Below, piece by piece: positions 1,259-23,446 of a DNA stretch of 24,000 bases. The stretch covers positions 14,759 to 38,758 of the forward strand of contig ASKX01000006.1 in the NCBI GenBank assembly GCA_000398025.1. Reading direction: 5' to 3'. The notes under the pieces are model-generated. The model was not told where the DNA came from, ran no database searches, and saw only the letters and a list, made by a program, of their open reading frames with translations. Every line of letters starts with the position of its first letter. Positions within the stretch are counted from its first letter, which is position 1. A program made the translations under genes and the position numbers. This DNA is from Candidatus Paceibacter normanii SCGC AAA255-P19 (GTDB taxonomy: Bacteria > Patescibacteriota > Minisyncoccia > Minisyncoccales > Paceibacteraceae).

Positions 1259-1710
1259 TGATAATTAAAAAAATAATTATAACTTTTGTTCTCTTGGGTT
1301 CAATGAATTTTTTATTCATTTCACCTTCGAGTTTAGTTTCACCAGTTTTTAGTTTGGCTCAGGAAACTCCTAAGGTAATTGAACCCCCGGAAACAATGGA
1401 AGAAGCCAAAGAATTGGGGGAGAAAGCCTTGGAAACCACCCAAAAAGAGCTTCCCGGAATTTTAGAAAAAATCTGGGAAGAGGACGTGCTACCGATTTGG
1501 CAAAAGATGTATGATTGGTTTTTAACTAATATCTGGCCCCAAATTAAAAGTTGGTTTAAAAAAGAAGTGGAGCCGAGAGTCAAAGAGGAAGTAGAAAAAA
1601 GAAAGCCGATAATTGAAGAAGAATTCGAAAAAGAAAAAGAAAAATTAAAAGAAGAGATTCCAGAGGTAAGTAAATCTCTCTGGGAAAAGCTCAATGAATT
1701 AATAAGATAA
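1258..1710 (+). CDS. hypothetical secreted/membrane-anchored protein, K/E/W-rich
   Basis: 150-aa ORF. It has a hydrophobic N-terminal signal-like segment (IIITFVLLGSMNFLFISPSSL...SLAQE), then a charged helical-looking region. No family was recognised. Confidence 0.7.
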   Translation: MIIKKIIITFVLLGSMNFLFISPSSLVSPVFSLAQETPKVIEPPETMEEAKELGEKALETTQKELPGILEKIWEEDVLPIWQKMYDWFLTNIWPQIKSWFKKEVEPRVKEEVEKRKPIIEEEFEKEKEKLKEEIPEVSKSLWEKLNELIR

Positions 1711-1721
1711 TTCATTTCGCC
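1693..1721 (+). repeat. hairpin-repeat family copy (AATGAA subfamily)
   Basis: AATGAATTA / ataaga / TAATTCATT is a 9-bp perfect stem followed by TCGCC. The stop codon at 1708-1710 lies in the 3' stem half. Confidence 0.6.
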
Positions 1722-1794
1722 TTCGAATTCAAAGAATCAATAAAGTATGCAGCCGTTAGGGTAGGGAACTCTGGCGGTTTTTTGTTTTTCCATA

Positions 1795-2238: not shown

Positions 2239-2314
2239 GAATATAGATAATGTCGGACAATGTAGGTAAAGCGACACTTTATATAGAGAAAAAAACCACT
2301 CCCCTAAAATTACT

Positions 2315-2340
2315 AAATGAAGCTAAAGCTTCATTTCGAC
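2315..2340 (+). repeat. hairpin-repeat family copy (AATGAA subfamily)
   Basis: AAATGAAGCT / aa / AGCTTCATTT followed by CGAC. It shares CTTCATTTCGA with the copy at 17631-17655. Confidence 0.6.
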
Positions 2341-2369
2341 CTGCGTTTTTATAAATAAAAACTTGGTAT

Positions 2370-3326
2370 ATGAAGAAATCAAACATCCCTATCATTAAAC
2401 ATATCCCTGATTTTTTAGATTATTGTGAAGTTGAAAAAGGTTTAGCAGATAGAACTCAGGAAAATTACCAGCACTATCTCCAAAAGTTTGTCTCCTGGCT
2501 CAAAAAGACCAAAAAAGAGACCCTATTACCCCATGAGCTTACGGCTGAGGATATTTGGGCTTATAGGCTATATTTATCTCGTTATACAAACGAAAAAGGC
2601 CGTCCCTTGAAGAAAGTTACCCAGAACTACTACCTTATCGCTCTGAGAGCCCTTCTGAGCTATTTTACAGCCAAAGACATAGATTCGCTCCCTGCCGATA
2701 AAATAGCCCTCCCAAAGGCTGATAGAGCCGAAAAAACGGTCAAATTCCTTAATTTAGAGCAGATTGAACGGCTTTTACTGGCTCCAAATACAAAGATGTC
2801 CCAAGGGCTTAGAGATAGGGCTATTTTGGAGTCTCTTTTCTCAACCGGCCTTAGAATAGCTGAACTGGTAGCTCTTAACCGGGAACAGTTTACAAATATA
2901 AAAGACAAAAAAGATTTAGAGCTTGGGATTATTGGCAAAGGAAGCCACCCCAGAACAGTTTACTTTTCTGAAAGGGCTCTTTCCTGGATTAAGAAGTATC
3001 TTGATACCCGCAAAGACAAAGACAAGGCCCTGTTTATCCATTACAGGGTCCGGGAAGACGCTGAAGCCCGTCTTACAGCCCGCTCCATAGAAAGGATTGT
3101 CAAAAAATACGCCATCTTGGCCGGCGTTCCTATATTTACTACTCCTCACACTCTTCGCCACAGTATGGCTACTGATTTGTTAACCCAAGGAGTTGATTTG
3201 CGAACCATCCAGGAATTTTTGGGCCACCGAAATATCGTTACCACTCAAATTTATACTCACGTCACAAATAAACGTCTCCGCGACGTCCACCGCCAGTACC
3301 ACAGCGGAAAGAATCTAAAGGAATAA
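2370..3326 (+). CDS. tyrosine recombinase, XerC/XerD-like
   Basis: 318 aa. It has an N-terminal SAM-like core-binding region and catalytic motifs in the expected order: R in TGLRIAEL, GKGSHPR, HTLRHS, LGHRN and IYTH. Confidence 0.9.
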   Translation: MKKSNIPIIKHIPDFLDYCEVEKGLADRTQENYQHYLQKFVSWLKKTKKETLLPHELTAEDIWAYRLYLSRYTNEKGRPLKKVTQNYYLIALRALLSYFTAKDIDSLPADKIALPKADRAEKTVKFLNLEQIERLLLAPNTKMSQGLRDRAILESLFSTGLRIAELVALNREQFTNIKDKKDLELGIIGKGSHPRTVYFSERALSWIKKYLDTRKDKDKALFIHYRVREDAEARLTARSIERIVKKYAILAGVPIFTTPHTLRHSMATDLLTQGVDLRTIQEFLGHRNIVTTQIYTHVTNKRLRDVHRQYHSGKNLKE

Positions 3327-3329
3327 AAA

Positions 3330-3351
3330 AGTCCTACCTGGAGATAGGACT
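3330..3351. terminator. hairpin between convergent genes; the T-run is on the minus-strand side
   Basis: AGTCCTA / cctggaga / TAGGACT. AAAAA at 3325-3329 supplies a U-run for the minus-strand 186-aa gene. Confidence 0.5.
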
Positions 3352-3375
3352 TAGGTTGTCCGAGATCGAGGAAAT

Positions 3376-3936
3376 CTAGAAAAGCTTAACCTTAACTAAT
3401 TCAGGACAGATGCCGGGAGGCGTATCATATATTCGAAGAGCCCTTTGTATTACGGCTATAAAGACCAGCGGAGGGTATTTCATTATTGAGTGAGTCTCCG
3501 TAAATCTTTTCTCCTTCTCATACCATGACCTTATTTCTTCTATAGCCTCCTTGACTGTCTTGTATTTGTCCGGCTCTTTTCCCTCTTCAGGACCAACAAG
3601 CCAGACTTTCCTTAATGGCTCGCGGATCGAGACGTAATGAGGAGAAAATCCATCGCCTAAGCGGTAGACAATCGTCCAGCGGATAAACTGCCACATACGT
3701 TTTTCAGGAATTCGTCTGAGGGAAAATCGAGCATTCTCGAATTCCCTCATGTCGTGCACCCTGCTAACGGCAAGGTACTGGAAGCAACGATGAGGCGACT
3801 TATCTGACAAACCTACTGACAGGGCTCCTCTTAGCCAAGGATAATTTTCCAGCAACCTCTCAAACTTAACCTTTTTCAATTTCCCTCCTTCGCCATATAG
3901 GCTTTTTATTGGAGTGATGGTTTCGGGCACGTCCAT
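3376..3936 (-). CDS. hypothetical protein (orphan, 186 aa)
   Basis: Long ORF with an ATG start, a consensus promoter upstream and a terminator downstream. No family was recognised. It contains an RFTETH (Rx4H) motif near the C-terminus. Confidence 0.75.
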   Translation of the reverse strand: MDVPETITPIKSLYGEGGKLKKVKFERLLENYPWLRGALSVGLSDKSPHRCFQYLAVSRVHDMREFENARFSLRRIPEKRMWQFIRWTIVYRLGDGFSPHYVSIREPLRKVWLVGPEEGKEPDKYKTVKEAIEEIRSWYEKEKRFTETHSIMKYPPLVFIAVIQRALRIYDTPPGICPELVKVKLF

Positions 3937-3973
3937 CGAAACCCATTGCTATAGAATATTTAGCAATATATTT

Positions 3974-4002
3974 ATTATATATATTTCTTTTTATTTTGTC
4001 AA
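3974..4002 (-). promoter_or_regulatory. consensus sigma70 promoter for the 186-aa gene
   Basis: On the minus strand: TTGACA (4002-3997), a 17-nt spacer, then TATAAT (3979-3974). The leader contains the hairpin ATTGCTA (3945-3951) / TAGCAAT (3961-3967). Confidence 0.6.
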
Positions 4003-4014
4003 TCAATAGCAAAA

Positions 4015-4041
4015 AACCGTTAGTTCCCCTAACGGTTTTCT
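4015..4041. terminator. bidirectional terminator-like hairpin between divergent genes
   Basis: AACCGTTAG / ttccc / CTAACGGTT is a 9-bp perfect stem, flanked by an A6 run on the left and TTTTCTC on the right. Confidence 0.55.
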
Positions 4042-4049
4042 CTCACCGA

Positions 4050-4097
4050 GCTTCTATTTATAGAAGCGAAGGTGGAAAAGAGAATTTATTCTCTTTG
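4050..4097 (+). repeat. double hairpin carrying the family's GCGAAGGTG module
   Basis: GCTTCTA/ttta/TAGAAGC (4050-4067) overlaps AAGCGAAGGTG (4064-4074), which is followed by AAGAGAA/ttta/TTCTCTT (4078-4095). AGCGAAGGTG is identical to the copy at 10091. Confidence 0.5.
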
Positions 4098-4221
4098 ACT
4101 AATCTATCAAATGTCGCACAATATTAGTGTGCCTGGATTTTTCTGTTTGGTAAGTGAAATAATCATTGGTTTTCTTTAAAACAAGCTCATAACGCAATTT
4201 TATACAAATTTTTGTAGCATC

Positions 4222-4252
4222 TTGACATACAGGTATGGTTTGCTAATATAAT
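4222..4252 (+). promoter_or_regulatory. sigma70-like promoter for the ATPase/Toprim pair
   Basis: TTGACA (4222-4227), then TAATAT (4244-4249, 16-nt spacer) or TATAAT (4247-4252). Confidence 0.5.
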
Positions 4253-4287
4253 GATAGGGTGTGGAATAATTAAAACATATAAAACAT

Positions 4288-5499
4288 ATGATTCATTCAT
4301 TCTCGTGTAAAAACTTCTATTCTTTTAACGATCTTACAACTGTCAGTTTTGTTGTAAATGAAAAGGCCCCTCATAACGAAGGTTATTTCCGAACTGAGTC
4401 TGGAAATAGGCTTTCCAAGGTCGAAACCGTTATCGGCCCAAATGCTTCCGGTAAAACCAATCTACTAAAAGTTTTACCTTTCTTGAAATGGCTTATCACT
4501 GGTTCGTTCGATCTCAAACCCTCAGATTTATTACCATTTAAACCGTTCCTTTTTGCTAGCAATGATAACAAAACAACCGAAATTTCGGCCGATTTTGAAA
4601 TTAAGGGAGATGTTTTTACTTATAGTTTTAATGTGAGTAGAGAAAGAATCATTTCAGAAGAATTAAAGGTAAGGAATAAAACTAACGAAAAATTAACAAG
4701 TAAAAAAGTGTTTTCTCGCTATTGGAATAATAAAAATGAAAAATATGAATTAGATGATAACAGCTTTAATCTCCCTAAAGAATTTGAAAATTCAATGCGT
4801 GCCAACGCCAGTATCGTGAGCGTAGCTGTTCGGTTTAATCATAAAGAGAGCCAAAAGATCTTCGATTACTGGCAAAAAATAGAAACTAATGTGATAGAGG
4901 CTGGCTGGATTGGCGACAGTCTTTTGCCTAATGCAGTAAAACAGCTAATAGAAACATTTGATTTTTACAGTGAAAACGAAATTGTTAAAAAAGAAGTGGA
5001 TAAATTATTGTCACGTTTTGATCTTGGTTTGGAGTCGTTCGATATTAAAAAAGAAAAAAAAGGAGATGAATTTTCAATAAGTATAAATGGTATCCATACT
5101 TTTGGTGGACAAAAAGATTATCGTCTCCCGATACAATATGAATCATCTGGCACAAAACAGCTTTCCGTTTTATCTAAATCTATTCTTTTAGCATTAACCA
5201 ACGGAGGGATGGTTGTTGTTGATGAATTTGATGTTAATCTACATCCAGAAGTGGTATTGACTCTGGTTGAATTATTTATCCATCAAGAAACTAATCCACA
5301 TAATGCTCAATTGTTGTTTAGCGCCCACAGTCATCGAGTTTTAACTAGGTTGGATAAATACCAAATCGTACTTACTGAGAAAAACGAGAAAGGCGAAAGC
5401 GAAGCGTGGCGTTTGGATGATGTGTCAAATGTTAGAACTGACGATAATTATTACGAAAAATACATCACTGGCGCATATGGAGCCGTACCCAAGCTATAA
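4288..5499 (+). CDS. AAA_21/ABC-type ATPase (AbiLi / RloA-like)
   Basis: N-terminus MIHSFSCKNFYSFND. Walker A is GPNASGKTN, the signature-like region is ESSGTKQLS, Walker B is MVVVDEFDVNLHP, and the H-loop is FSAHSH. Confidence 0.85.
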   Translation: MIHSFSCKNFYSFNDLTTVSFVVNEKAPHNEGYFRTESGNRLSKVETVIGPNASGKTNLLKVLPFLKWLITGSFDLKPSDLLPFKPFLFASNDNKTTEISADFEIKGDVFTYSFNVSRERIISEELKVRNKTNEKLTSKKVFSRYWNNKNEKYELDDNSFNLPKEFENSMRANASIVSVAVRFNHKESQKIFDYWQKIETNVIEAGWIGDSLLPNAVKQLIETFDFYSENEIVKKEVDKLLSRFDLGLESFDIKKEKKGDEFSISINGIHTFGGQKDYRLPIQYESSGTKQLSVLSKSILLALTNGGMVVVDEFDVNLHPEVVLTLVELFIHQETNPHNAQLLFSAHSHRVLTRLDKYQIVLTEKNEKGESEAWRLDDVSNVRTDDNYYEKYITGAYGAVPKL

Positions 5500-6022
5500 T
5501 CGCCAAAAACAAAAGAAATATCGTAGTAAAAAAACTGTTTTTTTCTTCGGCGAGGGACCGGGAGAAACGTTTTTTTTGAAACATTTGCAATCTTTATATC
5601 ATTACTCTAAGTTAACATTCATAAGAATTGTAACTGGTAGAAGAGGTACTGCCGACGGAATCGTTATCGATGCAAGTAAAATGGGTAATTACGATAAGAA
5701 GGTTGTTATTCTGGATAATGACAAGCCGCAAAAAGAAATGGAAGAAGCAAGACGGGAAGCAAAAAATAGAAATATCGAGCTAATTGAGAATACTCCTTGT
5801 CTAGAACATATGCTGTTAACAATTTTGTCGGATGCAGATGGGAAAAATTTAAAAAGTTCAACACAGTATAAAAAAAATTTTGAATCCAAATATATGGATA
5901 GGAAAAAACGAAGGGAGTCAAGTGAATATACAAAGTTATTCCCAAAAAAATTACTAAATGAAAAGAGGGAAAAAGTTAAAAATTTAAATAGGATAATTTC
6001 AATAATGAAAAGTGGTAAATAG
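5477..6022 (+). CDS. RloB-like / Toprim-fold protein (AbiLii-like)
   Basis: VFFFGEGPGETFFLKHL (EG..E), VVILDNDKP (DxD) and NTPCLEHMLLTIL match the RloB pattern as I recall it. I chose the ATG at 5477, which overlaps the ATPase stop by 23 nt. The ORF-track start at 5417 is less likely. Confidence 0.8.
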   Translation: MEPYPSYNRQKQKKYRSKKTVFFFGEGPGETFFLKHLQSLYHYSKLTFIRIVTGRRGTADGIVIDASKMGNYDKKVVILDNDKPQKEMEEARREAKNRNIELIENTPCLEHMLLTILSDADGKNLKSSTQYKKNFESKYMDRKKRRESSEYTKLFPKKLLNEKREKVKNLNRIISIMKSGK

Positions 6023-6035
6023 TGCATTGTCCGAT

Positions 6036-6110
6036 AAAAAATAAAAACTGCCCAGCGATGGGCGTTTTATTATCCCCTACTCCGCACAATATGCCTTGTA
6101 GGACATTAAA
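6036..6110 (+). repeat. direct-repeat copy 1, containing the terminator hairpin GCCCA-gcga-TGGGC (6050-6063) plus a T-run
   Basis: aaaataaaaaCtgcccagcgatgggcGtttta ... tgtaggacattaaat. The partner copy is at 7226-7295. Confidence 0.7.
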
Positions 6111-6153
6111 TTAGGTTTCGAATCCTATCCCCAATTAGTTGAGATTAAAATGA

Positions 6154-7149
6154 TTACCACAAAGATATACTTTCTATAAAATTAAAATCTTCAACCTCTT
6201 TAAAATGCTCTGATAAACCTTCTGAGTTATGGTAAGTATATTTTGCCCCAAACTCATTATCGGCATTAAATAAATCAAGAAGATATCGCTGATCGCATGC
6301 CCAACACGATTTATCATCTATATTATATGAAACTATGTATGGTGTAGGATCATTGCTGATAATTTTGTATTCTATATAATTTCCGCAATTTATCTTGTAT
6401 TTTCTATTATCATGAAGGTTGATTATTTCTCTTTCTTGCGTTTGTCCACCCCAGTTATAATTAGCTATATTTAAATCGTGTTCTGTTAAATCATGTTTTG
6501 GCATAACCCATTTCACGTAATATCCGTTATCAAACCCTATTATAATTGGGTAAATCCAGACACAATGATTAAAATTACACACACTCCATTCTGTAATAAG
6601 TTCGTTTTTTCCGTCTGAGTCAATATCTCCTATATGTGCTTGGGTTAATAATAGAGGCGCCCTAAAAGATCCCTCTTCTTCTATGTAGGTTTGGTCCAAG
6701 GCCAAAGGGATAAGTTTATAGACTAATTCATAATCTCGAGTCGCGGGATTAAAGTCGTAAAAAAGAATTCCAGAATAGGTGTCTGGGAAAGTTTCGGGTT
6801 CTCTCGCACTAAACCACCCGGCATGTTCGAAATAATCAAAGTTTTGAATCAGAACTATCCTTGTTTCATATTCAGATCCGGTTAATTCTTTAGTTTTAAT
6901 TTCCTTCTCCTCTAACTCATTGGTTAAAAATTCATAGCGAAAAATTAAATCTCTGCTAAGCATTTTCTGATATTGCGAGTAATCCTTATAAAAATCCCAT
7001 ACAAAGTTAACAGAAAAACCAATCACTATACCAATAATAAGGGAAATTAAAATTTTATTGCTGAAAATTTTTTGAAATTTCATAATCCGTTCTTTTCCCT
7101 TTAAAAATATTTGCCTTACTTTAATTTTATATTTTGTAAAATCTTCCAT
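6154..7149 (-). CDS. hypothetical membrane-anchored protein with a DxDxDG (FG-GAP/VCBS-like) motif
   Basis: 331-aa ORF with an N-terminal TM segment (ILISLIIGIVIGFSVNFVW) and GDIDSDGKNELI. An alternative start at 7083 (MKFQKIF) is possible. The gene is AT-rich. Confidence 0.75.
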   Translation of the reverse strand: MEDFTKYKIKVRQIFLKGKERIMKFQKIFSNKILISLIIGIVIGFSVNFVWDFYKDYSQYQKMLSRDLIFRYEFLTNELEEKEIKTKELTGSEYETRIVLIQNFDYFEHAGWFSAREPETFPDTYSGILFYDFNPATRDYELVYKLIPLALDQTYIEEEGSFRAPLLLTQAHIGDIDSDGKNELITEWSVCNFNHCVWIYPIIIGFDNGYYVKWVMPKHDLTEHDLNIANYNWGGQTQEREIINLHDNRKYKINCGNYIEYKIISNDPTPYIVSYNIDDKSCWACDQRYLLDLFNADNEFGAKYTYHNSEGLSEHFKEVEDFNFIESISLW

Positions 7150-7225
7150 AAATTTTCTTCAACTTCGGGCTAAATTTTAGCTATTTCTACTTTCAGAATA
7201 GCCCCGATTTTTAGAAAATTCAAGG

Positions 7226-7295
7226 TAAAATAAAAATTGCCCAGCGATGGGCTTTTAGCATAAACGTCGCTTTACATAGACTGTAGGACCCAAAT
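7226..7295 (+). repeat. direct-repeat copy 2 (hairpin GCCCA-gcga-TGGGC at 7239-7252)
   Basis: aaaataaaaaTtgcccagcgatgggctttta ... tgtaggacccaaat. It has the same orientation and internal spacing as copy 1. Confidence 0.7.
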
Positions 7296-7330
7296 AAGCT
7301 TTTAACTCCTGAAGCTACGCAGTGCGACGT

Positions 7331-7357
7331 AAAAAACCGCCCTCTTAAGAAAACGGT
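7331..7357 (-). terminator. rho-independent terminator of the VIT gene
   Basis: The minus strand reads ACCGTTTTCTTAAGAGGGCGGT (a hairpin with G-U pairs) followed by TTTTTT. Confidence 0.55.
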
Positions 7358-7414
7358 CAGAACGAACTCCGCTGGCTGGACGATTTTAGATTTGAATAAA
7401 GAGTGTCGTTTTTA

Positions 7415-7897
7415 TTAACTAAGAGTCGCAACCCAATCACCAATACAACGAGTAATGATAACAACTAAAATAGCAATGGAAATGTGTTCTAAAATAACCC
7501 AGTGGGGCTTTTGCTGTTGTTGTCTAGCAATATAGAAACTAAAAATTCCAATTGAAAATAACCCCCATAATACGCTAATGATAATTGCCGTAGACAGCGG
7601 AAGAATTAAAATTGGTATGACAAAAGTTAAAGCAACGACAAATTTAGAAAGCAAAGTGGAAATAGTTGATTCCCAGATTTCCCTTTGAGTGCGTTTTTCC
7701 TCTGACTCCTGTGAAATATGAATCCCCAAAGCGTCAGAAAGCGCATCGGCGACTGCGATAAACAAAATACCTCCCATAACCACTATTTTTGAATGAGTGC
7801 CCGAATGTAATCCCACCATCAATCCCAAAGTAGTAATAATTCCTGAAGTTAAGCCGAAACTAAAGCCGATTTTAAATGACTGTTTGATATTGAGCAT
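7415..7897 (-). CDS. VIT1/CCC1-family (iron/manganese transporter-like) membrane protein
   Basis: 160 aa. GLTSGIITTLGLMVGL and AVADALSDALG blocks, a central acidic loop and C-terminal TM helices are typical of short VIT-family proteins. Confidence 0.8.
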   Translation of the reverse strand: MLNIKQSFKIGFSFGLTSGIITTLGLMVGLHSGTHSKIVVMGGILFIAVADALSDALGIHISQESEEKRTQREIWESTISTLLSKFVVALTFVIPILILPLSTAIIISVLWGLFSIGIFSFYIARQQQQKPHWVILEHISIAILVVIITRCIGDWVATLS

Positions 7898-7903
7898 TTT
7901 TCT

Positions 7904-7912
7904 ATTCTACCA
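7904..7912 (-). promoter_or_regulatory. extended -10 (TGgTAGAAT) six nt from the VIT ATG, implying a leaderless mRNA
   Basis: The minus strand reads TGGTAGAAT agaaaa ATG. Confidence 0.45.
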
Positions 7913-8015
7913 AAAAAACCGCCTAATTGGTAATTTTGTTACTCTTTGCGCCTCATTCATAGATTGGACGCCCATCGCCAGCTTCACGGCGGGAAAAACT
8001 TAATGAGCCTGCTGT

Positions 8016-8046
8016 TAATAAAAAGCAAGGGTCAAAAGGCCCTTGC
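8016..8046 (-). terminator. rho-independent terminator of the 77-aa gene
   Basis: The minus strand reads GCAAGGG ccttttga CCCTTGC followed by TTTTTATT. Confidence 0.65.
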
Positions 8047-8054
8047 CAAATGTG

Positions 8055-8288
8055 CTAATGTCCTCTCCCTCCACAGCATGAAAAACATAAAACACTTGCA
8101 CAGAACGCCGCATCTCTTTCGTTCGTAAAGGCAGCGTAATCAATACCTTCAGCAAATCCGCCACGCTTCGCAATTATAGGCTCACCTTGCAGAGTTGCCT
8201 GAAAAGTATCTTTACGCCACTCTTCTTCTGAAACCTGTGCTGGATGTACGTTGATTTCCGGCCCTCTATCAACAACAAAAATATTCAT
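8055..8288 (-). CDS. hypothetical small protein (77 aa) with a Cys-rich C-terminus
   Basis: ATG start preceded by AAGGAGG with a 9-nt spacing. It has its own promoter-like TTGACC-16-TAAACT (8353-8326) and its own terminator. Its GC is higher than its neighbours. The tail is CASVLCFSCCGGRGH. Confidence 0.65.
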   Translation of the reverse strand: MNIFVVDRGPEINVHPAQVSEEEWRKDTFQATLQGEPIIAKRGGFAEGIDYAAFTNERDAAFCASVLCFSCCGGRGH

Positions 8289-8373
8289 CCTGCCTATCCT
8301 CCTTGTCTTCTGTAAGATTAGTCTCAGTTTATCAATTTTAAAAGAGAGGTCAAGGATTTATTTCGGTATGTAA

Positions 8374-9219
8374 TTACCGAAAAAGTATACCAGCTTCTTC
8401 AATTAATGGATATAAGGATTTTTGAGATATTTTGAATTTTTTGGCGAATTTTTGAGGATCAATTTTTAATACGTCTTTGGCCAGCATTATTTTTTCTGAA
8501 ACAAAAATGTCTTTTAAGTATCCTTTTAGGGATGGTAAAATAGTTACAGGATAAAGCCCTTCTTTTTCTATTAAATTCTCCAGACCCTCTTTTTTGGGAT
8601 ATCTCCAGCCCAAAAGCTCAATTCCTGAACATCGAGAATAAGCAATAGCCCGATTGGTAAATTTTGTATTGGTAACCATAATGGTTTTAATCTGGGAATT
8701 CTGGTATTTCTTTGATTTGAGATATTTTCCTTTTAAGATGTCTTGGAAACGAGCCTGGTTAGCTAAGACTTCTTTGGAATGAACTCTTTCTCCTGGCAAA
8801 TTTCGGTATTTACACTCCCCTACATAAACTAGTTTATTCTTTTGGGCCAGGAAATCTGTTTCGTAGCTAGAAAGGCAAAAGCCTGGAAGATATTGATTAA
8901 TTTTCACTCGGAAACCTTGCTTTTTGAAGATTTCCCCAATATATTTTTCAAAAGGAAAGCCCGTCGGCCCCAATTTTCTCATTCCGGCTTTCAAAGAGAA
9001 CCTTAAAGCAGATTTTGGGGTTCTTCGGGAAAGTATTTTTTTGGCTTTTTTATAAATTTCAAAGGTTTTGATTCCAGGAAAAGCTTCATTGCTAATGATT
9101 TTGGCAATTTCTTTGGCTAAAGAGGGTTTAGCCCCAGCCCTTCTGGCTGAATTATATACCTTATCAAAAGAAAACGGCTCTTTCTCTCCCTTTGAGTTAA
9201 CTACATAAAGAGGGCTCAT
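8374..9219 (-). CDS. ATP-cone domain fused to a Mrr-like PD-(D/E)xK restriction-endonuclease-fold domain
   Basis: The N-terminus YVVNSKGEKEPFSFDKVYNSARRAG...TFEIYKKAKKIL fits the ATP-cone pattern. The central FEKYIGEIFKKQGFRV...ETDFLAQKNKLVYVGECKY fits a D...E-x-K nuclease core. Confidence 0.8.
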   Translation of the reverse strand: MSPLYVVNSKGEKEPFSFDKVYNSARRAGAKPSLAKEIAKIISNEAFPGIKTFEIYKKAKKILSRRTPKSALRFSLKAGMRKLGPTGFPFEKYIGEIFKKQGFRVKINQYLPGFCLSSYETDFLAQKNKLVYVGECKYRNLPGERVHSKEVLANQARFQDILKGKYLKSKKYQNSQIKTIMVTNTKFTNRAIAYSRCSGIELLGWRYPKKEGLENLIEKEGLYPVTILPSLKGYLKDIFVSEKIMLAKDVLKIDPQKFAKKFKISQKSLYPLIEEAGILFR

Positions 9220-9245
9220 TTTTTTTCTTTAACCTTATTATCCAT

Positions 9246-9267
9246 CCGATATGAGTACCGATATGAG
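9246..9267. repeat. tandem direct repeat CCGATATGAG-ta-CCGATATGAG in the nuclease gene's upstream region
   Basis: Direct reading. The repeat lies 27-48 nt upstream of the ATG at 9219 on the minus strand. Confidence 0.6.
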
Positions 9268-9376: not shown

Positions 9377-10070
9377 AGTGGCCAAATCTCCGGCTGCGCC
9401 GGTTATATTCTTCTATTGCTTCATCTAAATCCTTTTCGGTAAAGGCTGGCCAGTATTTTTTAGGAAAATAGAGTTCAGAATAAGCCCCTTGCCAAATAAC
9501 AAAATTAGAAAGCCGCCGCTCCCCGCCTGCCCGAATAATCAAATCTGGGTCGGGCAGGCCAGCAGTAGAAAGATGCTGACTAATTAAGTCTTCAGTAATT
9601 TTTGAGGCAGGGATTTTCTTTCTAACAATCTTTTGAACTGCCTGAGTAATATCCCACCTGCCACCATAACTTATGGCTAAGTTCAATTGAAGATCTTTAT
9701 TATTTTTAGTTAAGTTCTCAATCTTAACAATGGCTTTTTGGAGGGACTTGGGCAATCTTTTTTTTTGGCCAATTATCTTTACCTTAACTTGATATTTTTG
9801 GATGTCTTTGACATGCTTTTTGTCAGAAATGCCCCTTTCCAATAATTTCATTAAATAGATCACCTCTCTTTTTGTTCTATCCCAGTTCTCAGTTGAAAAC
9901 CCAAAAGCGGTCAAAACTTTCACTCCTCTTTTTTGGCACCACTGGCAAAATTTAAGTAAATTTTTATAACCTTCCCAATGGCCTTTTAAAGTTGGCAATC
10001 CCCTTTCTTTGGCCCAGCGCCGATTACCATCGGGAAATAAAACAATATGAATTGGAATTTGTTTCTTCAT
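9375..10070 (-). CDS. uppS: undecaprenyl-diphosphate synthase (cis-prenyltransferase)
   Basis: IVLFPDGNRRWAKERG, GFSTENW and IRAGGERRLSNF motifs. I chose the start at ATG 10070 (MKKQIPIH). An in-frame alternative ATG at 10121 lies inside a hairpin-repeat copy. The ORF-track start at 10187 is unlikely. Confidence 0.9.
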   Translation of the reverse strand: MKKQIPIHIVLFPDGNRRWAKERGLPTLKGHWEGYKNLLKFCQWCQKRGVKVLTAFGFSTENWDRTKREVIYLMKLLERGISDKKHVKDIQKYQVKVKIIGQKKRLPKSLQKAIVKIENLTKNNKDLQLNLAISYGGRWDITQAVQKIVRKKIPASKITEDLISQHLSTAGLPDPDLIIRAGGERRLSNFVIWQGAYSELYFPKKYWPAFTEKDLDEAIEEYNRRSRRFGH

Positions 10071-10275
10071 AAACCAAGCTTTTATAATGTGAAAGCGAAG
10101 GTGAAGATGAAGGAACTTCATCGCCTCCCCTTTCGACTCTAATTGGCGCCTTCTCTTGCTGCCGGGCCGTAATGAAACCGGCAGCAAAAGAAAGCAAAGA
10201 GATTAAAATAACTCCAATTAGTAAAATTATATCATCTAAATGGCATTGGACAAATTCTTTAATTTTTGCTAGCAT
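10024..10275 (-). CDS. possible small membrane protein whose C-terminus is encoded by a hairpin-repeat copy
   Basis: It has an ATG start and a strongly hydrophobic helix (IILLIGVILISLLSFAAGFI). The tail GGDEVPSSSPSLSH is the repeat read in frame. It overlaps the uppS 5' end by 47 nt. This call is weakly supported. Confidence 0.3.
   Translation of the reverse strand: MLAKIKEFVQCHLDDIILLIGVILISLLSFAAGFITARQQEKAPIRVERGGDEVPSSSPSLSHYKSLVYEETNSNSYCFISRW
10091..10125 (+). repeat. hairpin-repeat family copy (GATGAA subfamily, reference copy)
   Basis: GAAAGCGAAGGTGAA, then GATGAAG / gaa / CTTCATC, then GCC. Confidence 0.75.
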
Positions 10276-13929: not shown

Positions 13930-15012
13930 TTAAATGTCTTCTTCTCTCAGTTTTTCTAATAGCTCTTTTTGTTTTTTTGTCAACCTCTTGGGGATTTTTA
14001 TTACCAACTCTACATACATGTCTCCCCGCCCATAACCCGAAAAGTGAGGAATCCCCTTTCCCGAAATCCGTAAAATCTTACCAGATTCTGTGCCGGCGGG
14101 AACTTTAAGCAAAATTTTAGTCCCAGACAAAGTAGAGGTTTCAATTTCATCTCCTAAAACTGCTTGTGAGAAAGAAACGGGAACCTTTACATGCAAATCA
14201 TCTCCTTTTCTCTTAAAAGCCGGGTGGGGCTTAACAAATATCCTTACATACAAATCTCCTGGTCTTCCTCCTCGCTTTCCGGCTTCTCCCTTCTCTTCAA
14301 TTTTTATCACTTGGTTACCGTCTACTCCAGCTGGAATAAAAATTTTAATTTTTTCCTCTCCTTTAGCTCTTCCTTCGCCCTGGCAAACATTACAAGGTTT
14401 TTCTGGCCGAAACCCTTCGCCGCCACATTCTGGACAGGTAACATAATGAGTAAAAGAGCCAAAAGGTGTTTTTTTAATTTGCTGAACTTGACCAGTTCCT
14501 CGACAGGAAAAGCATTCTTTAATGGACGTGCTTGGTTCAGCTCCAGTTCCTTGACAGCGAGAACAGATAATTGGTTTAGATAAAGAAATTTCTTTCTCTT
14601 TTCCTTGTAAAACATCTTCTAAAGAAACTTCCATTCCCACTTCAATATTTTTCCCCCGACGGAGGTCTTTTTTTCTTCGGGGAGTCCCAAAACCAAAAAT
14701 TTCTTCCATCACATCTCCCAAGTCCTCGAAGTCAAAATCAAAGCCCATCTCAGGCCTTCCCCAGGCCCATTGAAAATCAGAACCAGGATCTGCTCCTACT
14801 CCTCCTTCAAAAACTCGACCAAATCTGTCGTATTGGGATCTCTTTTCTTTGTCAGAAAGAATCTGATAAGCCTCGTTTATCTCTTTGAACTTTTTTTCAT
14901 CACCTCCTTTGTCTGGATGATGTTTATGAGCCAGCTTCCGATAGGCCTTTCTTACCTCGTCTGGGGAGGCGTCTCTAGAAATGCCTAAAATTTGATAAAA
15001 ATCCTTATTCAT
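13930..15012 (-). CDS. dnaJ: molecular chaperone DnaJ
   Basis: J-domain (DFYQILGI...HHPDK), a G/F region and four CxxCxGxG zinc-finger repeats. The start at 15012 (MNKDFY) is preferred over the ORF-track start at 15033. Confidence 0.95.
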   Translation of the reverse strand: MNKDFYQILGISRDASPDEVRKAYRKLAHKHHPDKGGDEKKFKEINEAYQILSDKEKRSQYDRFGRVFEGGVGADPGSDFQWAWGRPEMGFDFDFEDLGDVMEEIFGFGTPRRKKDLRRGKNIEVGMEVSLEDVLQGKEKEISLSKPIICSRCQGTGAEPSTSIKECFSCRGTGQVQQIKKTPFGSFTHYVTCPECGGEGFRPEKPCNVCQGEGRAKGEEKIKIFIPAGVDGNQVIKIEEKGEAGKRGGRPGDLYVRIFVKPHPAFKRKGDDLHVKVPVSFSQAVLGDEIETSTLSGTKILLKVPAGTESGKILRISGKGIPHFSGYGRGDMYVELVIKIPKRLTKKQKELLEKLREEDI

Positions 15013-15046
15013 CGAGCTTTCATTCTTTAACATTAATAATATATGC

Positions 15047-15102
15047 GAAAGCGAAGATAAAGATGAAGGGAAACCCCGCGGGGGGGGGCAAACTTCATCG
15101 CT
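15047..15102 (+). repeat. hairpin-repeat family copy with an expanded loop and a G9 tract
   Basis: GAAAGCGAAGATAAA, then GATGAAG (15062-15068), a 24-nt loop containing CCCCGCGGGG and G x9 (15080-15088), then CTTCATC (15093-15099) and GCT. Confidence 0.7.
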
Positions 15103-16997: not shown

Positions 16998-17543
16998 TTA
17001 ATCTTTATTCCACTTCGTGACCTTGACTTTAGCAGGGCGTAAAACCTTGCCTTGAATAGTATAGCCCCTTTGAGTCTCTTCTAAAACCGTTCCTGGTTCT
17101 ACCTCTCCTTCTTCAACCATCTCCACTGCTTCTTGAAAATTAGGGTCAAACTTTTTTCCAACTGATTTTATTTCCTCTACTCCTTGGTTTTTTAGAAAAT
17201 CTTGGAGCTGAGTTTTAATCTGTAAAAGTCCCTTTACCTGTTCGTCATCTTTCAAATCTTCGGACAACTTTTTCTCCACAAGTTCAAAATTATCTAAGAT
17301 TGGCAGAATTTTCAAGATTAATTCCTCTCCGGCATACTTTAAAAATTCAGAAATCCTCTCAATTTCCTCTTTTTTATAGTTCAGGAAATCGGCCCGAGCT
17401 CTCTGCCAGCCAGCCAAATATTCTTCGGTTTTCTTCTGGCATTCTTCCAACTCCCGAGATATATCGACGGGGGAAGATGAATCTTTAGATTCATCGCCCT
17501 CTTTCTTAAATTCCTCTGGAGTTAGCTCCTTTTGGGTCTCCAT
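16998..17543 (-). CDS. grpE: nucleotide exchange factor GrpE
   Basis: RARADFLNYKKE and FDPNFQEAV motifs, and a position upstream of dnaK in the same orientation. Confidence 0.95.
   Translation of the reverse strand: METQKELTPEEFKKEGDESKDSSSPVDISRELEECQKKTEEYLAGWQRARADFLNYKKEEIERISEFLKYAGEELILKILPILDNFELVEKKLSEDLKDDEQVKGLLQIKTQLQDFLKNQGVEEIKSVGKKFDPNFQEAVEMVEEGEVEPGTVLEETQRGYTIQGKVLRPAKVKVTKWNKD
17465..17498 (+). repeat. hairpin-repeat family copy embedded in the grpE coding sequence
   Basis: CGACGGGGGAA, then GATGAATC / ttta / GATTCATC, then GCC. grpE reads it as EGDESKDSSSPV. Confidence 0.65.
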
Positions 17544-17551
17544 ATCTAACT

Positions 17552-17580
17552 ATTATACTAAAAATCTGATTAGGAATCAA
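17552..17580 (-). promoter_or_regulatory. sigma70-like promoter of grpE-dnaK-dnaJ, giving a near-leaderless start
   Basis: On the minus strand: TTGATT (17580-17575), a 17-nt spacer, TATAAT (17557-17552), then 8 nt to the ATG at 17543. Confidence 0.55.
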
Positions 17581-17630
17581 TGCCTCCTATGTTTTCAAAG
17601 ACGAATTTGCTAAAATAGTATAATATGCTC

Positions 17631-17655
17631 AATGAGTCTTCGCTTCATTTCGATC
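17631..17655 (+). repeat. hairpin-repeat family copy (AATGAA subfamily, weaker)
   Basis: AATGAG / tcttcgc / TTCATT followed by TCGATC. It lies in the corA leader. Confidence 0.45.
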
Positions 17656-17680
17656 TTCAATAAATTTTCAATTTATTTCG

Positions 17681-18592
17681 ATGCGTAATGTCATTAAGGG
17701 ACCAAAAGTAACCTGGGTCGACATTCAAGATCCTACTGAAAAAGATATCAAATATTTAAAAAGGAACTTTAACCTCCATCCTTTAGTTTTGGGCGAGTTG
17801 ATTCCTCCTGGTCATCGGCCAAAAGTGGAGCATTACAAAAACTATCTCTTTATGATTTTTTATTACCCGGTTTATAGCAAAGAGGAAAGGGAAACCAGAC
17901 CCAGAGAACTGGATATCATTGTCACCAAAAATGTTTTAATCACCAGCCACTACAAATCAATCCTTCCTTTAAAATCTCTTTTTGATGCTTGTAATCTTTA
18001 CCAAGAAACTCAACAAAGATATTTAGCCCGGAGCGCAGGCTATCTTCTTTTCCATTTACTGAGTAGGTTTTGGAAAAGTTGCTTAACTAAATTAGACCGA
18101 ATCGATGCCAAAATAGAAACCATTGAAAAAGAAATTTTTCAAGGGAAAGAAAAAGAAATGGTCTGGGAAATTTCTTTAGTCAAAACTGATATCATTAATT
18201 TTTGGCGAATTGTTGAACCGCAAGCAGAAATCTTAGAATCTCTTTCCAAAGAAGGGCCGGCTTTCTTTGGGCAAAAACTTGCTCCTTATTTTATTGACAT
18301 CATCGGTACCTGTGGAAAGGCCTGTAACAGTTTAATAACCTACAAGGAAACAATCTTAGCCCTAGAAGATACTAATCAATCTTTGCTTTCCACCAAAACT
18401 AACGAAATTATCAGGATTTTAACTGTCTTTTCAATAGTTCTTTTACCCTTAACTCTTTTAGCTTCAATCTGGGGAATGAACGTTTTTCTTCCCTTCGCTG
18501 ATTCCTCAAGTGGTTTCTGGATAATTTTACTGATAATGGTGGGTTTAATGGGCTTTTTAATTGCTTATTTTAGAAAAAAACGATGGCTCTAA
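17681..18592 (+). CDS. corA: CorA-family magnesium/cobalt transporter
   Basis: 303 aa with two C-terminal TM helices and the GMN signature (IWGMNVFLPF). Confidence 0.9.
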   Translation: MRNVIKGPKVTWVDIQDPTEKDIKYLKRNFNLHPLVLGELIPPGHRPKVEHYKNYLFMIFYYPVYSKEERETRPRELDIIVTKNVLITSHYKSILPLKSLFDACNLYQETQQRYLARSAGYLLFHLLSRFWKSCLTKLDRIDAKIETIEKEIFQGKEKEMVWEISLVKTDIINFWRIVEPQAEILESLSKEGPAFFGQKLAPYFIDIIGTCGKACNSLITYKETILALEDTNQSLLSTKTNEIIRILTVFSIVLLPLTLLASIWGMNVFLPFADSSSGFWIILLIMVGLMGFLIAYFRKKRWL

Positions 18593-22113: not shown

Positions 22114-23446
22114 ATGTCTTTAGAAAATTAACAACTCTTTTGGCGTCATCTTGAGAGATGTTAATGTGAGTTGGCAGGTTCAAAATGCTTTTAGCTACTT
22201 TTTCTGCTCGGGGACAACTACCCAAAAGGTATTGCATCTTCTCAATATCAGTATCTGGCGGAACCACTGGGCTTTTCCTCCAGCCATCATCCAAATAAAT
22301 TTTCCTTTTTCTGGCTGCTTTTAAAACGTCACTAGTATTAAGATTGGTTAAAACAGGATAGCGCATAAAAATCGGCTGTCTGGCGCCCCAAGGCTTAGGC
22401 GATGAACTTCGTTCATCTTCACCCTTCGCTAACGCTCGGGTAGCTAAAGGTAAATAAAAGTTTATTAGTTCTCTTTCGTAAAATTTGGCAATCTCCCTTC
22501 GGTGTTCATTAAATCTCTCTAATTTTTTAAATTGATTTAAACCTAGAATGGCTAGGGCATTGGGAAGAAATTTGGGAAAATGCTGGGGAATTTTTCCCTT
22601 TTTCTCTTTCTTATAGACTGCTTTAGAAAGAATTAAAAGTTTATGGAAAACCCCAATAATCACTCTTCCCAGGGTTGAGTTTACTCCATAAGCTGGCAGA
22701 ATTAAATAATTCATTAAAATGGGATGCCAAAGTTGCTGACAAATCCAGAAACTGGAAGGAAAAAACAACCCAGCTTGAAATCTCTTTAGCCCCTCCCCTA
22801 TTTTTTCATTATTAGTAACTGCCAGGCCGCCAAAAACCGAAGAAATTATTTTGTCTCTACCAAAACTAAAGAAAGCGACATCTCCGAAGGTACCGCAAGG
22901 TCTTCCTTCATATTTTGCTCCCAAAGAATGAGCACAATCCTCTATCAGGTATAAATTGTTCTCCCTGGCGATTTTTAAAATTTCTTCTATTTTAGCTGGC
23001 CAGCCAAAATTATGCTGTATCATTATGGCCTTTGGAGCTCGCCCTGAGTTTATCGAATGGGTAATTTTTCTTTTGAGGTCTACCGGGTCAAGATTTAAAG
23101 TATCATCAATATCCACATAAACTGGCTTAGCTCCTCTTTCTAAAATAGGATTAACAGCTGAATTGCAAGTGAAGGCCTGCAACAAAACCTCATCTCCATT
23201 TTTTATTTCCAGGGCATCCAAAATTGCCATCAAAGCTGACCTGCCGCTATTAAAAGAAATAGCATATTTTACTCCCAAATATCTTTTGAATTCTTCCTCT
23301 AATTCTACTGTCGGAGGTCGGGACTCCGAAGGTTGTTCCTTTTGCCAACGCCAAGGCTGAAAAAGTAATTTCAAAGCTAAAAAGACATCATCTTTTTCGG
23401 TATTGGGTGATAAAGATATAGAAATGGGCCGAAAGAAATTCATCAT
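22103..23446 (-). CDS. DegT/DnrJ/EryC1/StrS-family PLP-dependent aminotransferase-like protein
   Basis: FNSGRSALMAIL, EDCAHSLGA and FSFGRDKIISS (putative PLP lysine). It contains an in-frame hairpin-repeat copy (KGEDERSSSPKP). Confidence 0.85.
   Translation of the reverse strand: MMNFFRPISISLSPNTEKDDVFLALKLLFQPWRWQKEQPSESRPPTVELEEEFKRYLGVKYAISFNSGRSALMAILDALEIKNGDEVLLQAFTCNSAVNPILERGAKPVYVDIDDTLNLDPVDLKRKITHSINSGRAPKAIMIQHNFGWPAKIEEILKIARENNLYLIEDCAHSLGAKYEGRPCGTFGDVAFFSFGRDKIISSVFGGLAVTNNEKIGEGLKRFQAGLFFPSSFWICQQLWHPILMNYLILPAYGVNSTLGRVIIGVFHKLLILSKAVYKKEKKGKIPQHFPKFLPNALAILGLNQFKKLERFNEHRREIAKFYERELINFYLPLATRALAKGEDERSSSPKPWGARQPIFMRYPVLTNLNTSDVLKAARKRKIYLDDGWRKSPVVPPDTDIEKMQYLLGSCPRAEKVAKSILNLPTHINISQDDAKRVVNFLKTYGD
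22399..22435 (-). repeat. hairpin-repeat family copy, inverted, inside the aminotransferase coding sequence
   Basis: The plus strand reads GGCGATGAAC ttc GTTCATC TTCACCCTTCGCTAAC. This is near-identical to the reverse complement of 10091-10125, with a compensated G:C to C:G stem pair. Confidence 0.75.

Follow-up and report, generated by a model that had tools for sequence, protein, structure and literature searches.

What is the short hairpin that recurs in gene leaders, spacers and coding regions alike along a 24 kb stretch of the genome of Candidatus Paceibacter normanii SCGC AAA255-P19 (hereinafter, the window)? The original prediction, which was made from the letters of this DNA alone, listed eight copies of a dispersed ATGAA/TTCAT hairpin followed by a 'CG tail', and likened them to the repetitive extragenic palindromes (REPs), the miniature inverted-repeat transposable elements known as MITEs and the Rickettsia palindromic elements (RPEs). 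Having compared these copies with their counterparts in other genomes and in metagenomes, we favor, with a probability of about 0.78, the view that they are very small (45-60 nt), non-autonomous, hairpin-based mobile DNA elements of the REP/RPE kind that inhabit Nealsonbacteria and Parcubacteria, within the Candidate Phyla Radiation (CPR). Of the analogies that had been drawn, propagation and in-frame insertion into genes hold up, whereas the features specific to MITEs are missing. No account of such a repeat in CPR bacteria was found in the literature searched, and this two-hairpin repeat of 45-60 bases is apparently undescribed.

Comparison of copies across genomes defines a unit of 45-60 nt with two hairpins, in the order 5'-GGCGA, hairpin P1, a single-stranded linker, TCTTCACC, and a second hairpin. 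P1 consists of about 8 bp closed by a TAAA or TTC loop, with the consensus GATGAAGC-TAAA-GCTTCATC and variants such as GAAGAGGA... and AAAGAGA... The second hairpin is formed by outer pairs, ACC(C)/(G)GGT, which enclose an internal loop, TTC/TC, and an inner stem, P2b, the sequence of which varies freely. In long forms (52-60 nt) P2b spans 6-8 bp, and in short forms (45-48 nt) it is cut down to GC-NNNN-GC; long and short forms of one architecture describe the family better than the two subfamilies that had been drawn initially. The boundaries first given enclose a genuine hairpin but only about the first half of the unit, and the 'CG tail' is indeed conserved but turns out to be the reverse complement of the 5' GGCGA. 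The latter is found upstream of P1 in about 70-90% of copies and defines the strand on which the unit is read, that is, minus for the copies at 10091, 15047, 17465 and 4064, and plus for those at 22399, 2315 and 17631.

The window was scored, with filters off, by a covariance model (R1) trained on 20 copies, only two of which come from the window. Seven copies, denoted here c1 to c6 and c8, are significant (E from 1e-18 to 4e-5), including c6, which lies outside the training set; they are split 4 to 3 between the strands, and the model hits make up 1.7% of the window. All eight sequences of the original list are present where they had been placed, and seven of them are recovered by the model, the exception being 1693-1721. 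Their excess over chance is substantiated, given that ATGAA-N3-28-TTCAT occurs 8 times in the window compared to 1.8 +/- 1.3 in shuffles, none of 100 shuffles reaching 8, and that the string TTCATCTTYMYC(N0-2)TCG, shared by the four copies that had been considered strong, occurs 4 times where 0.00 occurrences are expected. An unprompted repeat search paired 10100-10126 with 22397-22423 (27 nt, 93%) and 2309-2367 with 4045-4103 (59 nt, 71%). Furthermore, the alignment of the copies extends well past the ATGAA/TTCAT core, to both helices and about 56 positions of the model.

The compensated stem changes noticed in the window prove to be real and pervasive. From the alignment alone, RNAalifold independently recovered this pair of helices, and c1, c3, c4, c5 and c6, when folded singly, adopt the two-hairpin structure under DNA or RNA parameters. 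Among 20 hand-picked copies, 97.5% of the stem cells are paired and 75 cells are changed on both sides, with such changes in 13 of the 18 pairs; in the control, partners slid by 1-3 columns pair in at most 47% of cells. In the larger, model-aligned set of 145 distinct copies, an alignment that leans towards the model, 96.5% of the stem cells are paired and 567 are double-changed, with none of 500 shuffles as high, and slid controls over both alignments pair in no more than 56% of cells. The two kinds of mispair, G.T and C.A, are equally rare (32 and 42, respectively, among 2307 cells), so that neither strand shows an RNA-like tolerance of wobble, and the constraint looks like Watson-Crick complementarity in DNA. 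Folding of one strand as RNA had been hinted at by an excess of C.A in the small alignment, that is, by wobble on the other strand, and is not borne out by the 145-sequence set (32 vs 42, p = 0.3). Among Rfam families, tRNA-Lys alone passes the gathering score in the window, and the element sites have no match at E < 2.

How widely is the family spread? A pattern scan over 185,579 species genomes yielded at least 118 loci, about 50 of them CPR records; among the matches listed, each of these approximately 50 records has the full two-hairpin unit, and the remaining loci are chance matches without the hairpin. The carriers include a complete Nealsonbacteria chromosome, CP179888.1 (639,534 bp), and the syntenic relative Parcubacteria CG1_02_39_15. 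Genomes were readable in pieces of 8-20 kb each, and copy counts refer to the sampled loci. Across 425 kb of CPR loci there are 193 R1 hits (E < 1e-3), at a density of about one copy per 3-5 kb, and these hits cover 1.9% of the sequence, a figure that is biased upward by the selection of loci in which a copy was already present. The non-CPR loci (504 kb) contain hits at the seeded sites alone, none of them above 28.2 bits, so that copy number is far higher than in the controls. The exact 29-mer consensus is present in 96 metagenome contigs (581 kb), with 285 model hits there, and the one match in viral contigs, which lacks both the hairpin and the 3' module, is due to chance. The family is found in many Nealsonbacteria and Parcubacteria genomes and metagenomes, and none was found outside the CPR records sampled.

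That the repeat moves follows from ten-odd precise filled and empty sites. Within the window, c4 (22398-22442, plus strand; short form, 33.1 bits) is a 45-nt insertion antisense to the gene for a DegT-like aminotransferase, and the corresponding 15 residues are missing from 24 of the 24 aligned homologues; the exact empty site, searched for in metagenomes, gave no match. Copy c3 (17451-17498, minus strand, model match 17452-17498; short form, 39.6 bits) is a 48-nt in-frame insertion in grpE, the empty allele of which is found at the DNA level (...AGGAAA|GAGCTGGAG...) in L123 and L124 (L numbers denote loci from other genomes and P numbers protein homologues). Among GrpE proteins the motif is absent in P0008, P0018, P0023 and P0031, lies at a second position in P0011, is triplicated in P0003/L004 as exact 48-nt tandem units with a different, fully compensated P1, and is single in others. 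Copy c6 (2313-2368, plus strand; long form, 51.5 bits), in the 5' leader of the xerC-like gene, has no counterpart in the syntenic relative L093, where the site is empty and, conversely, a 48-nt copy at 656-703 corresponds to an empty site in the window. In the dnaK-dnaJ spacer, the site of c2 (15010-15102, minus strand; 21 bits with filters off, for a match at 15010-15080, and 42 bits under default filters) is empty in L002, where the two genes are 3 nt apart (TAA-AAT-ATG), and short in L004. A flank-based survey added further gap-0 empty sites (L001/L004, L008/L040, L052/L040 and L084/L073). In L025, one copy lies inverted inside another, and the orthologous site in L051 is uninterrupted, which proves a nested insertion; similar nesting occurs in L066 and L081/L042, and head-to-tail arrays of 2-4 units are common. 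Thus, the orthologous loci, to which the original prediction had pointed as a check, include both filled and empty sites as well as hairpin-preserving substitutions.

The ends of the unit and its target are also informative. The 5' end reads GGCGATGAAG, and the 3' end, when reverse-complemented, reads TACCCGAGC. The two do not match, as they would in the case of terminal inverted repeats; the palindromy is internal, in two separate hairpins. Neither is there a fixed target-site duplication: the dinucleotides on the two sides are identical for 22 of 116 copies, compared to 15.8 +/- 3.1 in shuffles, and the filled/empty junctions show 0-3 nt of ambiguous overlap, with none in L008 versus L040. 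A strict, IS630-like duplication of TA fits three junctions, is unsupported overall and is contradicted by the L008/L040 junction. At positions +2 to +4 of the 3' flank, T, G and A reach 70%, 64% and 86%, respectively, and the motif NN-TGA(A/W)G is already there at empty sites (G^TTTGAAG in L040, CA^ATTGATC in the window, GG^TGAAG at the nested insertion), which makes it a target preference rather than a part of the element: the unit sits two bases 5' of a TGA(A)G that was there beforehand. Copies are gained and lost precisely, nest, are amplified in tandem, insert in an oriented way and lack both inverted repeats and duplication, and their hairpins are constrained in structure and accompanied by conserved single-stranded motifs; we take these features for hallmarks of elements that are handled as folded single strands. 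Under such a mechanism, an enzyme acting in trans would recognize the hairpins, together with their conserved single-stranded flanks, in the form of folded single strands of DNA, as happens with REPs and their REP-associated tyrosine transposases (RAYTs) or with IS200/IS605, and the target might be read through pairing of CTTCA in the linker with TGAAG. The target of the nested insertion was the linker in reverse complement, which may point to base-pair guidance. No covariation of P1 or the linker with the target was seen, the grpE case (TCTTCC vs GGAAGA) representing one orthologous site.

Target choice has a conspicuous consequence for gene starts. The ATG of an open reading frame (ORF) of at least 60 codons lies at one exact offset, one base past the end of the model, in 18 of 138 copies, whereas an ORF start falls within an 18-nt window at only 4.9% of random positions, and the mirror test at the opposite end yields 5. 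Insertion two bases upstream of a native TGA(A)G places many copies one base before ATGAAG start codons, and ATGAAR would be a common gene start in AT-rich genomes without Shine-Dalgarno sequences, a reason for the element to end up often in that position. In the window, a Shine-Dalgarno sequence precedes none of the 18 genes whose starts were inspected. The exact offset applies to uppS and xerC, and the starts of dnaJ and corA overlap the last bases of the element, in agreement with the leader and spacer locations originally reported for these copies, all of which the covariance model reproduces. The 3' end of c6 lies 1 nt before the ATG at 2370, and a promoter-like site upstream of it (2211-2238) is conserved in L093. 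Copy c1 (10072-10125, minus strand; long form, 60.7 bits), for which the minimum-free-energy fold coincides with the two-hairpin model, is located between a small membrane-protein ORF and uppS, with its 3' end 1 nt before the uppS ATG at 10070, and its orthologue at uppS in L093 shows a compensatory A:T to G:C change in P1. The 3' end of c2 abuts the dnaJ ATG at 15012. Two other explanations of this neighborhood were rejected. The 'TTCATCGCC' tail could be taken for a ribosome-binding site followed by an ATG on the minus strand (GGAGGCGATGAA); Shine-Dalgarno sequences are lacking in all other genes, and the string is also found within genes and in antisense. In three window copies, the second hairpin has an ATAAAT loop that could be taken for a -10 box; elsewhere the loops are GC-rich, and xerC and hrcA have canonical promoters further upstream.

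About 70% of the copies lie outside long ORFs, which cover approximately 86% of the sequence. Those inside (41-56 of about 140) are found in grpE, the DegT-like gene, murD, a D-Ala-D-Ala carboxypeptidase gene, aspS and genes next to mraY, among others, and no transposase was seen near carrier genes. Intragenic copies are more often sense than antisense (30 vs 11); the number of frames without a stop in the short-form consensus is two for sense and one for antisense. Frame 0, GDEAKASSSPFAxARV, is used by 23 of 26 sense copies; frame 1 is equally open but hydrophobic, so that the preference points to filtering at the protein level. Insertions into genes would then survive in stop-free frames only, and overwhelmingly as the hydrophilic GDEAKASSSP. 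In the window, c3 is read in sense as GDESKDSSSPVDISRE, and the DegT-like gene reads c4 as TRALAKGEDERSSSP.

Several observations do not sit easily with a mobile element. The pairing of linker and target is a single observation without covariation, and the flanks are TGAA whatever the type of P1. No transposase or HUH gene was detected by a heuristic tblastn search with an IS200 TnpA sequence in 434 kb of scattered loci (best E = 1.4), a weak negative, and the copies within one genome are diverse, unlike the outcome of a recent burst. Moreover, identity between several orthologous resident copies reaches 94-98%, compared to 65-81% in the 240 nt that flank them, and the locus-specific P2b is conserved as well; conservation this strong is not expected of inert insertions and suggests selection, gene conversion or drive. 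In part it may reflect ascertainment, since the pairs were found by model score, and in part structural selection or gene conversion. There are decaying copies, too. L025 and L079 share one that is 71% identical, and c8 (17628-17683, plus strand), a degenerate copy of the long form, located in the corA leader and running over the ATG of this gene at 17681 (28 bits, E = 3e-7), is 72% identical to its orthologue in L003 despite flanks that are 95-100% identical and thus appears to be decaying; its fold is no better than those of shuffles.

It is mainly because of the conservation of resident copies that two host-centered alternatives keep some weight. Could the repeat be a cis-regulatory RNA, with the two hairpins in 5' leaders controlling translation initiation or mRNA stability and the intragenic copies as by-products? 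The placement of ATG codons at one exact 3' offset (18 of 138 copies) would make sense in these terms, as would the location of copies between a conserved promoter and an ATG (xerC, as well as hrcA in L001, downstream of a CIRCE-like promoter), the maintenance of P1 through a compensatory change in the orthologous uppS copy, conservation in excess of that of the flanks and the mildly favored sense orientation between co-directional genes (25 vs 14). However, the TGA of the 3' flank is present also where no gene starts (TTGA, CTGA) and in empty sites, so that the start-codon phasing follows from target choice. Copies do occur antisense to transcription: about 30% of the copies are intragenic, 11-15 of these in antisense, and 14 intergenic ones are antisense to both neighbors. 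Given also that G.U pairs are tolerated no more than C.A mispairs, that the xerC and dnaJ orthologues do without the element and that no Rfam family matches, we consider a regulatory RNA unlikely. The strict Watson-Crick complementarity of the stems on both strands, along with the occurrence of copies independent of orientation, would fit a signal at the DNA level that is kept by the host or by molecular drive, such as a chromosome-organizing site, a site for a replication protein or a DNA-uptake signal, with insertion being only the origin of the sites. The near-identical consensus across many species and 96 metagenome contigs, the nucleotide conservation of some resident copies beyond that of the host coding sequence, and the reliance of CPR bacteria, which carry competence genes, on imported nucleotides and DNA are all compatible with such a signal. 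Known uptake signals, though, are motifs of 9-12 nt that arise by point mutation, quite unlike two-hairpin insertions of 45-60 nt, and some copies decay (the 72% of c8 against flanks of 95-100%, and the 71% of L025/L079), which leaves this possibility improbable.

An interpretation without any element, under which a recurrent low-complexity peptide (G-D/E-E-x-K-x-SSSP) is selected in proteins and AT-rich palindromes arise by chance, can claim the recurrence of the motif in GrpE, the DegT-like enzyme and other proteins; it is already contradicted by the intergenic copies (about 70%) and the antisense ones, such as the DegT copy, which is antisense to the model strand and yet the same DNA, whereas synonymous positions are conserved and the stems covary (0 of 500 shuffled controls), and we find it hardly credible. 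Returning to mobile DNA, one can envisage a more specific scenario, namely a hitherto unrecognized class of minimal, hairpin-guided elements of about 50 nt in CPR bacteria that choose NN-TGAAG by pairing with the linker (CTTCA), employ an enzyme that would not be recognized as a transposase and have resident copies co-opted by the host. This scenario is speculative and rather less likely than not; if it were true, host takeover, with copies serving as the 5' boundary of start codons that lack Shine-Dalgarno sequences or as flexible protein linkers, would explain conservation above that of host genes.

Where does the repeat belong among known systems? RPEs are palindromic dispersed repeats that occur between genes and often, in frame, within unrelated housekeeping genes, to which they add a conserved peptide (PMC10969869). 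The CPR repeat behaves in the same way, with in-frame insertions that add a family peptide (48 nt in c3, 45 nt in c4, and 23 of 26 copies in the GDEAKASSSP frame); both repeats lack coding capacity of their own, combine intergenic with in-frame gene copies and reside in very small, host-dependent genomes. When compared by description, RPEs are about 100-150 bp long and belong to Alphaproteobacteria, whereas the CPR repeat is 45-60 nt long with two short hairpins and is further set apart by the target motif NN-TGA(A)G and its adjacency to start codons; relatedness is not expected. REPs, for their part, are extragenic by definition and have a head of the GTAG type. With about 30% of its copies within genes, the CPR repeat does not fit this definition. 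As far as the description in PMC2817692 goes, REPs are imperfect palindromes, short and present in many copies, in which a conserved single-stranded motif adjoins the foot of the hairpin and terminal inverted repeats are lacking. The CPR repeat, likewise, is a short imperfect palindrome with a conserved unpaired head and a high copy number, and it forms inverted doublets (L012, 4851-4939; L001, 9193-9289) that resemble REPs and bacterial interspersed mosaic elements; a REP, however, has one hairpin, the GTAG-type head and a RAYT, as opposed to two different hairpins, a GGCGA head and no RAYT seen in the sampled loci.

Elements of the IS200/IS605 type have neither inverted repeats nor target duplication; at each of the two ends there is a sub-terminal hairpin, and insertion beside a short, specific target takes place in one orientation. 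The CPR repeat shares with them two hairpins, a native 3' NN-TGA(A)G and the absence of inverted repeats and of duplication. Their derivatives (PATE-type) mostly exceed 100 bp and insert immediately 3' of a target of four or five nucleotides, flush with the left end; in the CPR repeat, unlike in IS200/IS605, the target motif is found 2 nt beyond the GGT end. MITEs (Correia/NEMIS, ERIC, RUP) are small, non-coding, dispersed and foldable, are sometimes intragenic and sometimes alter the expression of neighbors (PMC10969869). The CPR repeat has in common with them small size, lack of coding capacity, dispersal, foldability and occasional location within genes; classical MITEs, however, have terminal inverted repeats and target-site duplications produced by a DDE transposase, and the CPR repeat has neither. 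On balance, its behavior is closest to that of RPEs and its anatomy to that of REPs and hairpin elements of the IS200/IS605 type.

The genomes of CPR bacteria (Patescibacteria) are among the smallest known cellular genomes, and nevertheless about 2% of the sampled DNA consists of one repeat. This repeat rewrites the sequence immediately 5' of start codons and adds hydrophilic segments of 15-18 residues, sometimes as variable tandem arrays, to essential proteins such as GrpE, MurD and a pyridoxal phosphate-dependent aminotransferase. It is a source of variation in protein length and leaders among close CPR lineages, confounds gene calling and protein alignment in CPR, and provides a second, independent example, in a distant phylum, of Rickettsia-type in-frame insertion. 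With its clean target motif, covarying hairpins and lack of inverted repeats and duplication, it offers a tractable system for studying the movement of minimal elements without an evident transposase.

Some sites in the window call for additional comment. The long form c5 (4044-4099, minus strand, intergenic), with the score of 65.4 bits and fold z-scores of -5.0 as DNA and -4.6 as RNA, is located within an island of about 6 kb and is followed by a terminator-like hairpin (4011-4041), with which it could be a stand-alone short transcript. A similar terminator-like hairpin at 1751-1779 shares with that at 4011-4041 the core CCGTTAGGG...CGGTTTTTT, and the two lie 10-40 nt downstream of c7 and c5, respectively. 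Site c7 (1690-1739, plus strand; 1693-1721 in the original prediction) contains a P1-like hairpin that straddles the ORF 1258-1710 stop codon. This site is perhaps a relic, its membership in the family not being supported by the model (10 bits, E = 0.14). The same ORF contains a borderline candidate at 1299-1338 (plus strand; 13.8 bits, E = 0.009) with AATGAAT/tttt/ATTCATT followed by TCACCTTC. The small ORF at 10024-10275 (minus strand), which overlaps the uppS start, encodes a one-helix membrane protein conserved in L093 and runs through c1 in frame 0 (...ERGGDEVPSSSPSLSHYKSLV...); the C-terminus of this protein may have been remodeled by the insertion of c1. In c2, the loop of P2 is 25 nt long and that of P1 contains a GC-rich insert of 24 nt, which had been described as a plain loop; the insert is there, but it looks like a small palindrome (15071-15094, CCCCGCGGGG within GGGAAACCCCGCGGGGGGGGGCAAAC) and probably represents another very small repeat that lies nested in c2. 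A string resembling it, CCCGCGGGG, occurs in L001 near 18050. The dnaK-dnaJ spacers of L001 (13826-13916) and L123 (2872-2955) hold yet another short repeat, with ATTCGCA/TGCGAAT units, which makes this spacer a place where small repeats land time and again.

Small insertions of this kind are probably not limited to one family, given that at least four other insertion peptides, HS.(N/G)SGR.P, DYNPPAT..SHSP.GERAP, FAKASAG and AERENHPAPSLEGAGSSTFQPRYASGK, recur at varied positions in unrelated CPR proteins (P0122, P0155, P0196, P0219, P0200, P0149, P0186, P0189, P0237, P0013, P0019 and P0044); these are probably further small insertion families. The first of these is also encoded in the DegT-like gene of the window (23033-23059, minus strand), and the DNA for DYNPPAT is found between genes as well (L001, approximately 18050-18100, minus strand).

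The host of the window is an ultra-small, Nealsonbacteria-like CPR bacterium: the closest relatives of its GrpE and DegT-like proteins carry the names Candidatus Nealsonbacteria, Parcubacteria or Patescibacteria. The G+C content of the window is 34-44%, and its genes include gltX, the xerC-like recombinase gene, uppS, pyrG, dnaJ, dnaK, grpE, corA, ftsQ, femAB and murF, those for ribosomal proteins L27 and L9, a C-terminal protease, tRNA-Lys, a PMT-type glycosyltransferase and the DegT-like aminotransferase. The island around c5 corresponds to a block of about 6 kb (3319-9246) that is missing from L093, where xerC and uppS are approximately 750 nt apart; with two hypothetical genes, an AAA ATPase and RloB-like, VIT-family and ATP-cone/endonuclease-like genes, it looks like a defense-type island. 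Within it, two terminator-like hairpins of 30 nt (6038-6067 and 7227-7256; AAAATAAAAAyTGCCCAGCGATGGGCkTTT, 93% identical) flank the gene at 6154-7149. The promoter-like site of grpE, TTGATT-17-TATAAT (17552-17580), ends 8 nt before the ATG (17541-17543), so that the mRNA would be leaderless or nearly so; hrcA and CIRCE are absent upstream of grpE in the window, and L001 has hrcA with a CIRCE-like inverted repeat over the promoter. Finally, L123 encompasses a bAvd (accessory variability determinant) gene at 8872-9258, beside very large ORFs, which indicates that components of diversity-generating retroelements are present in these genomes.

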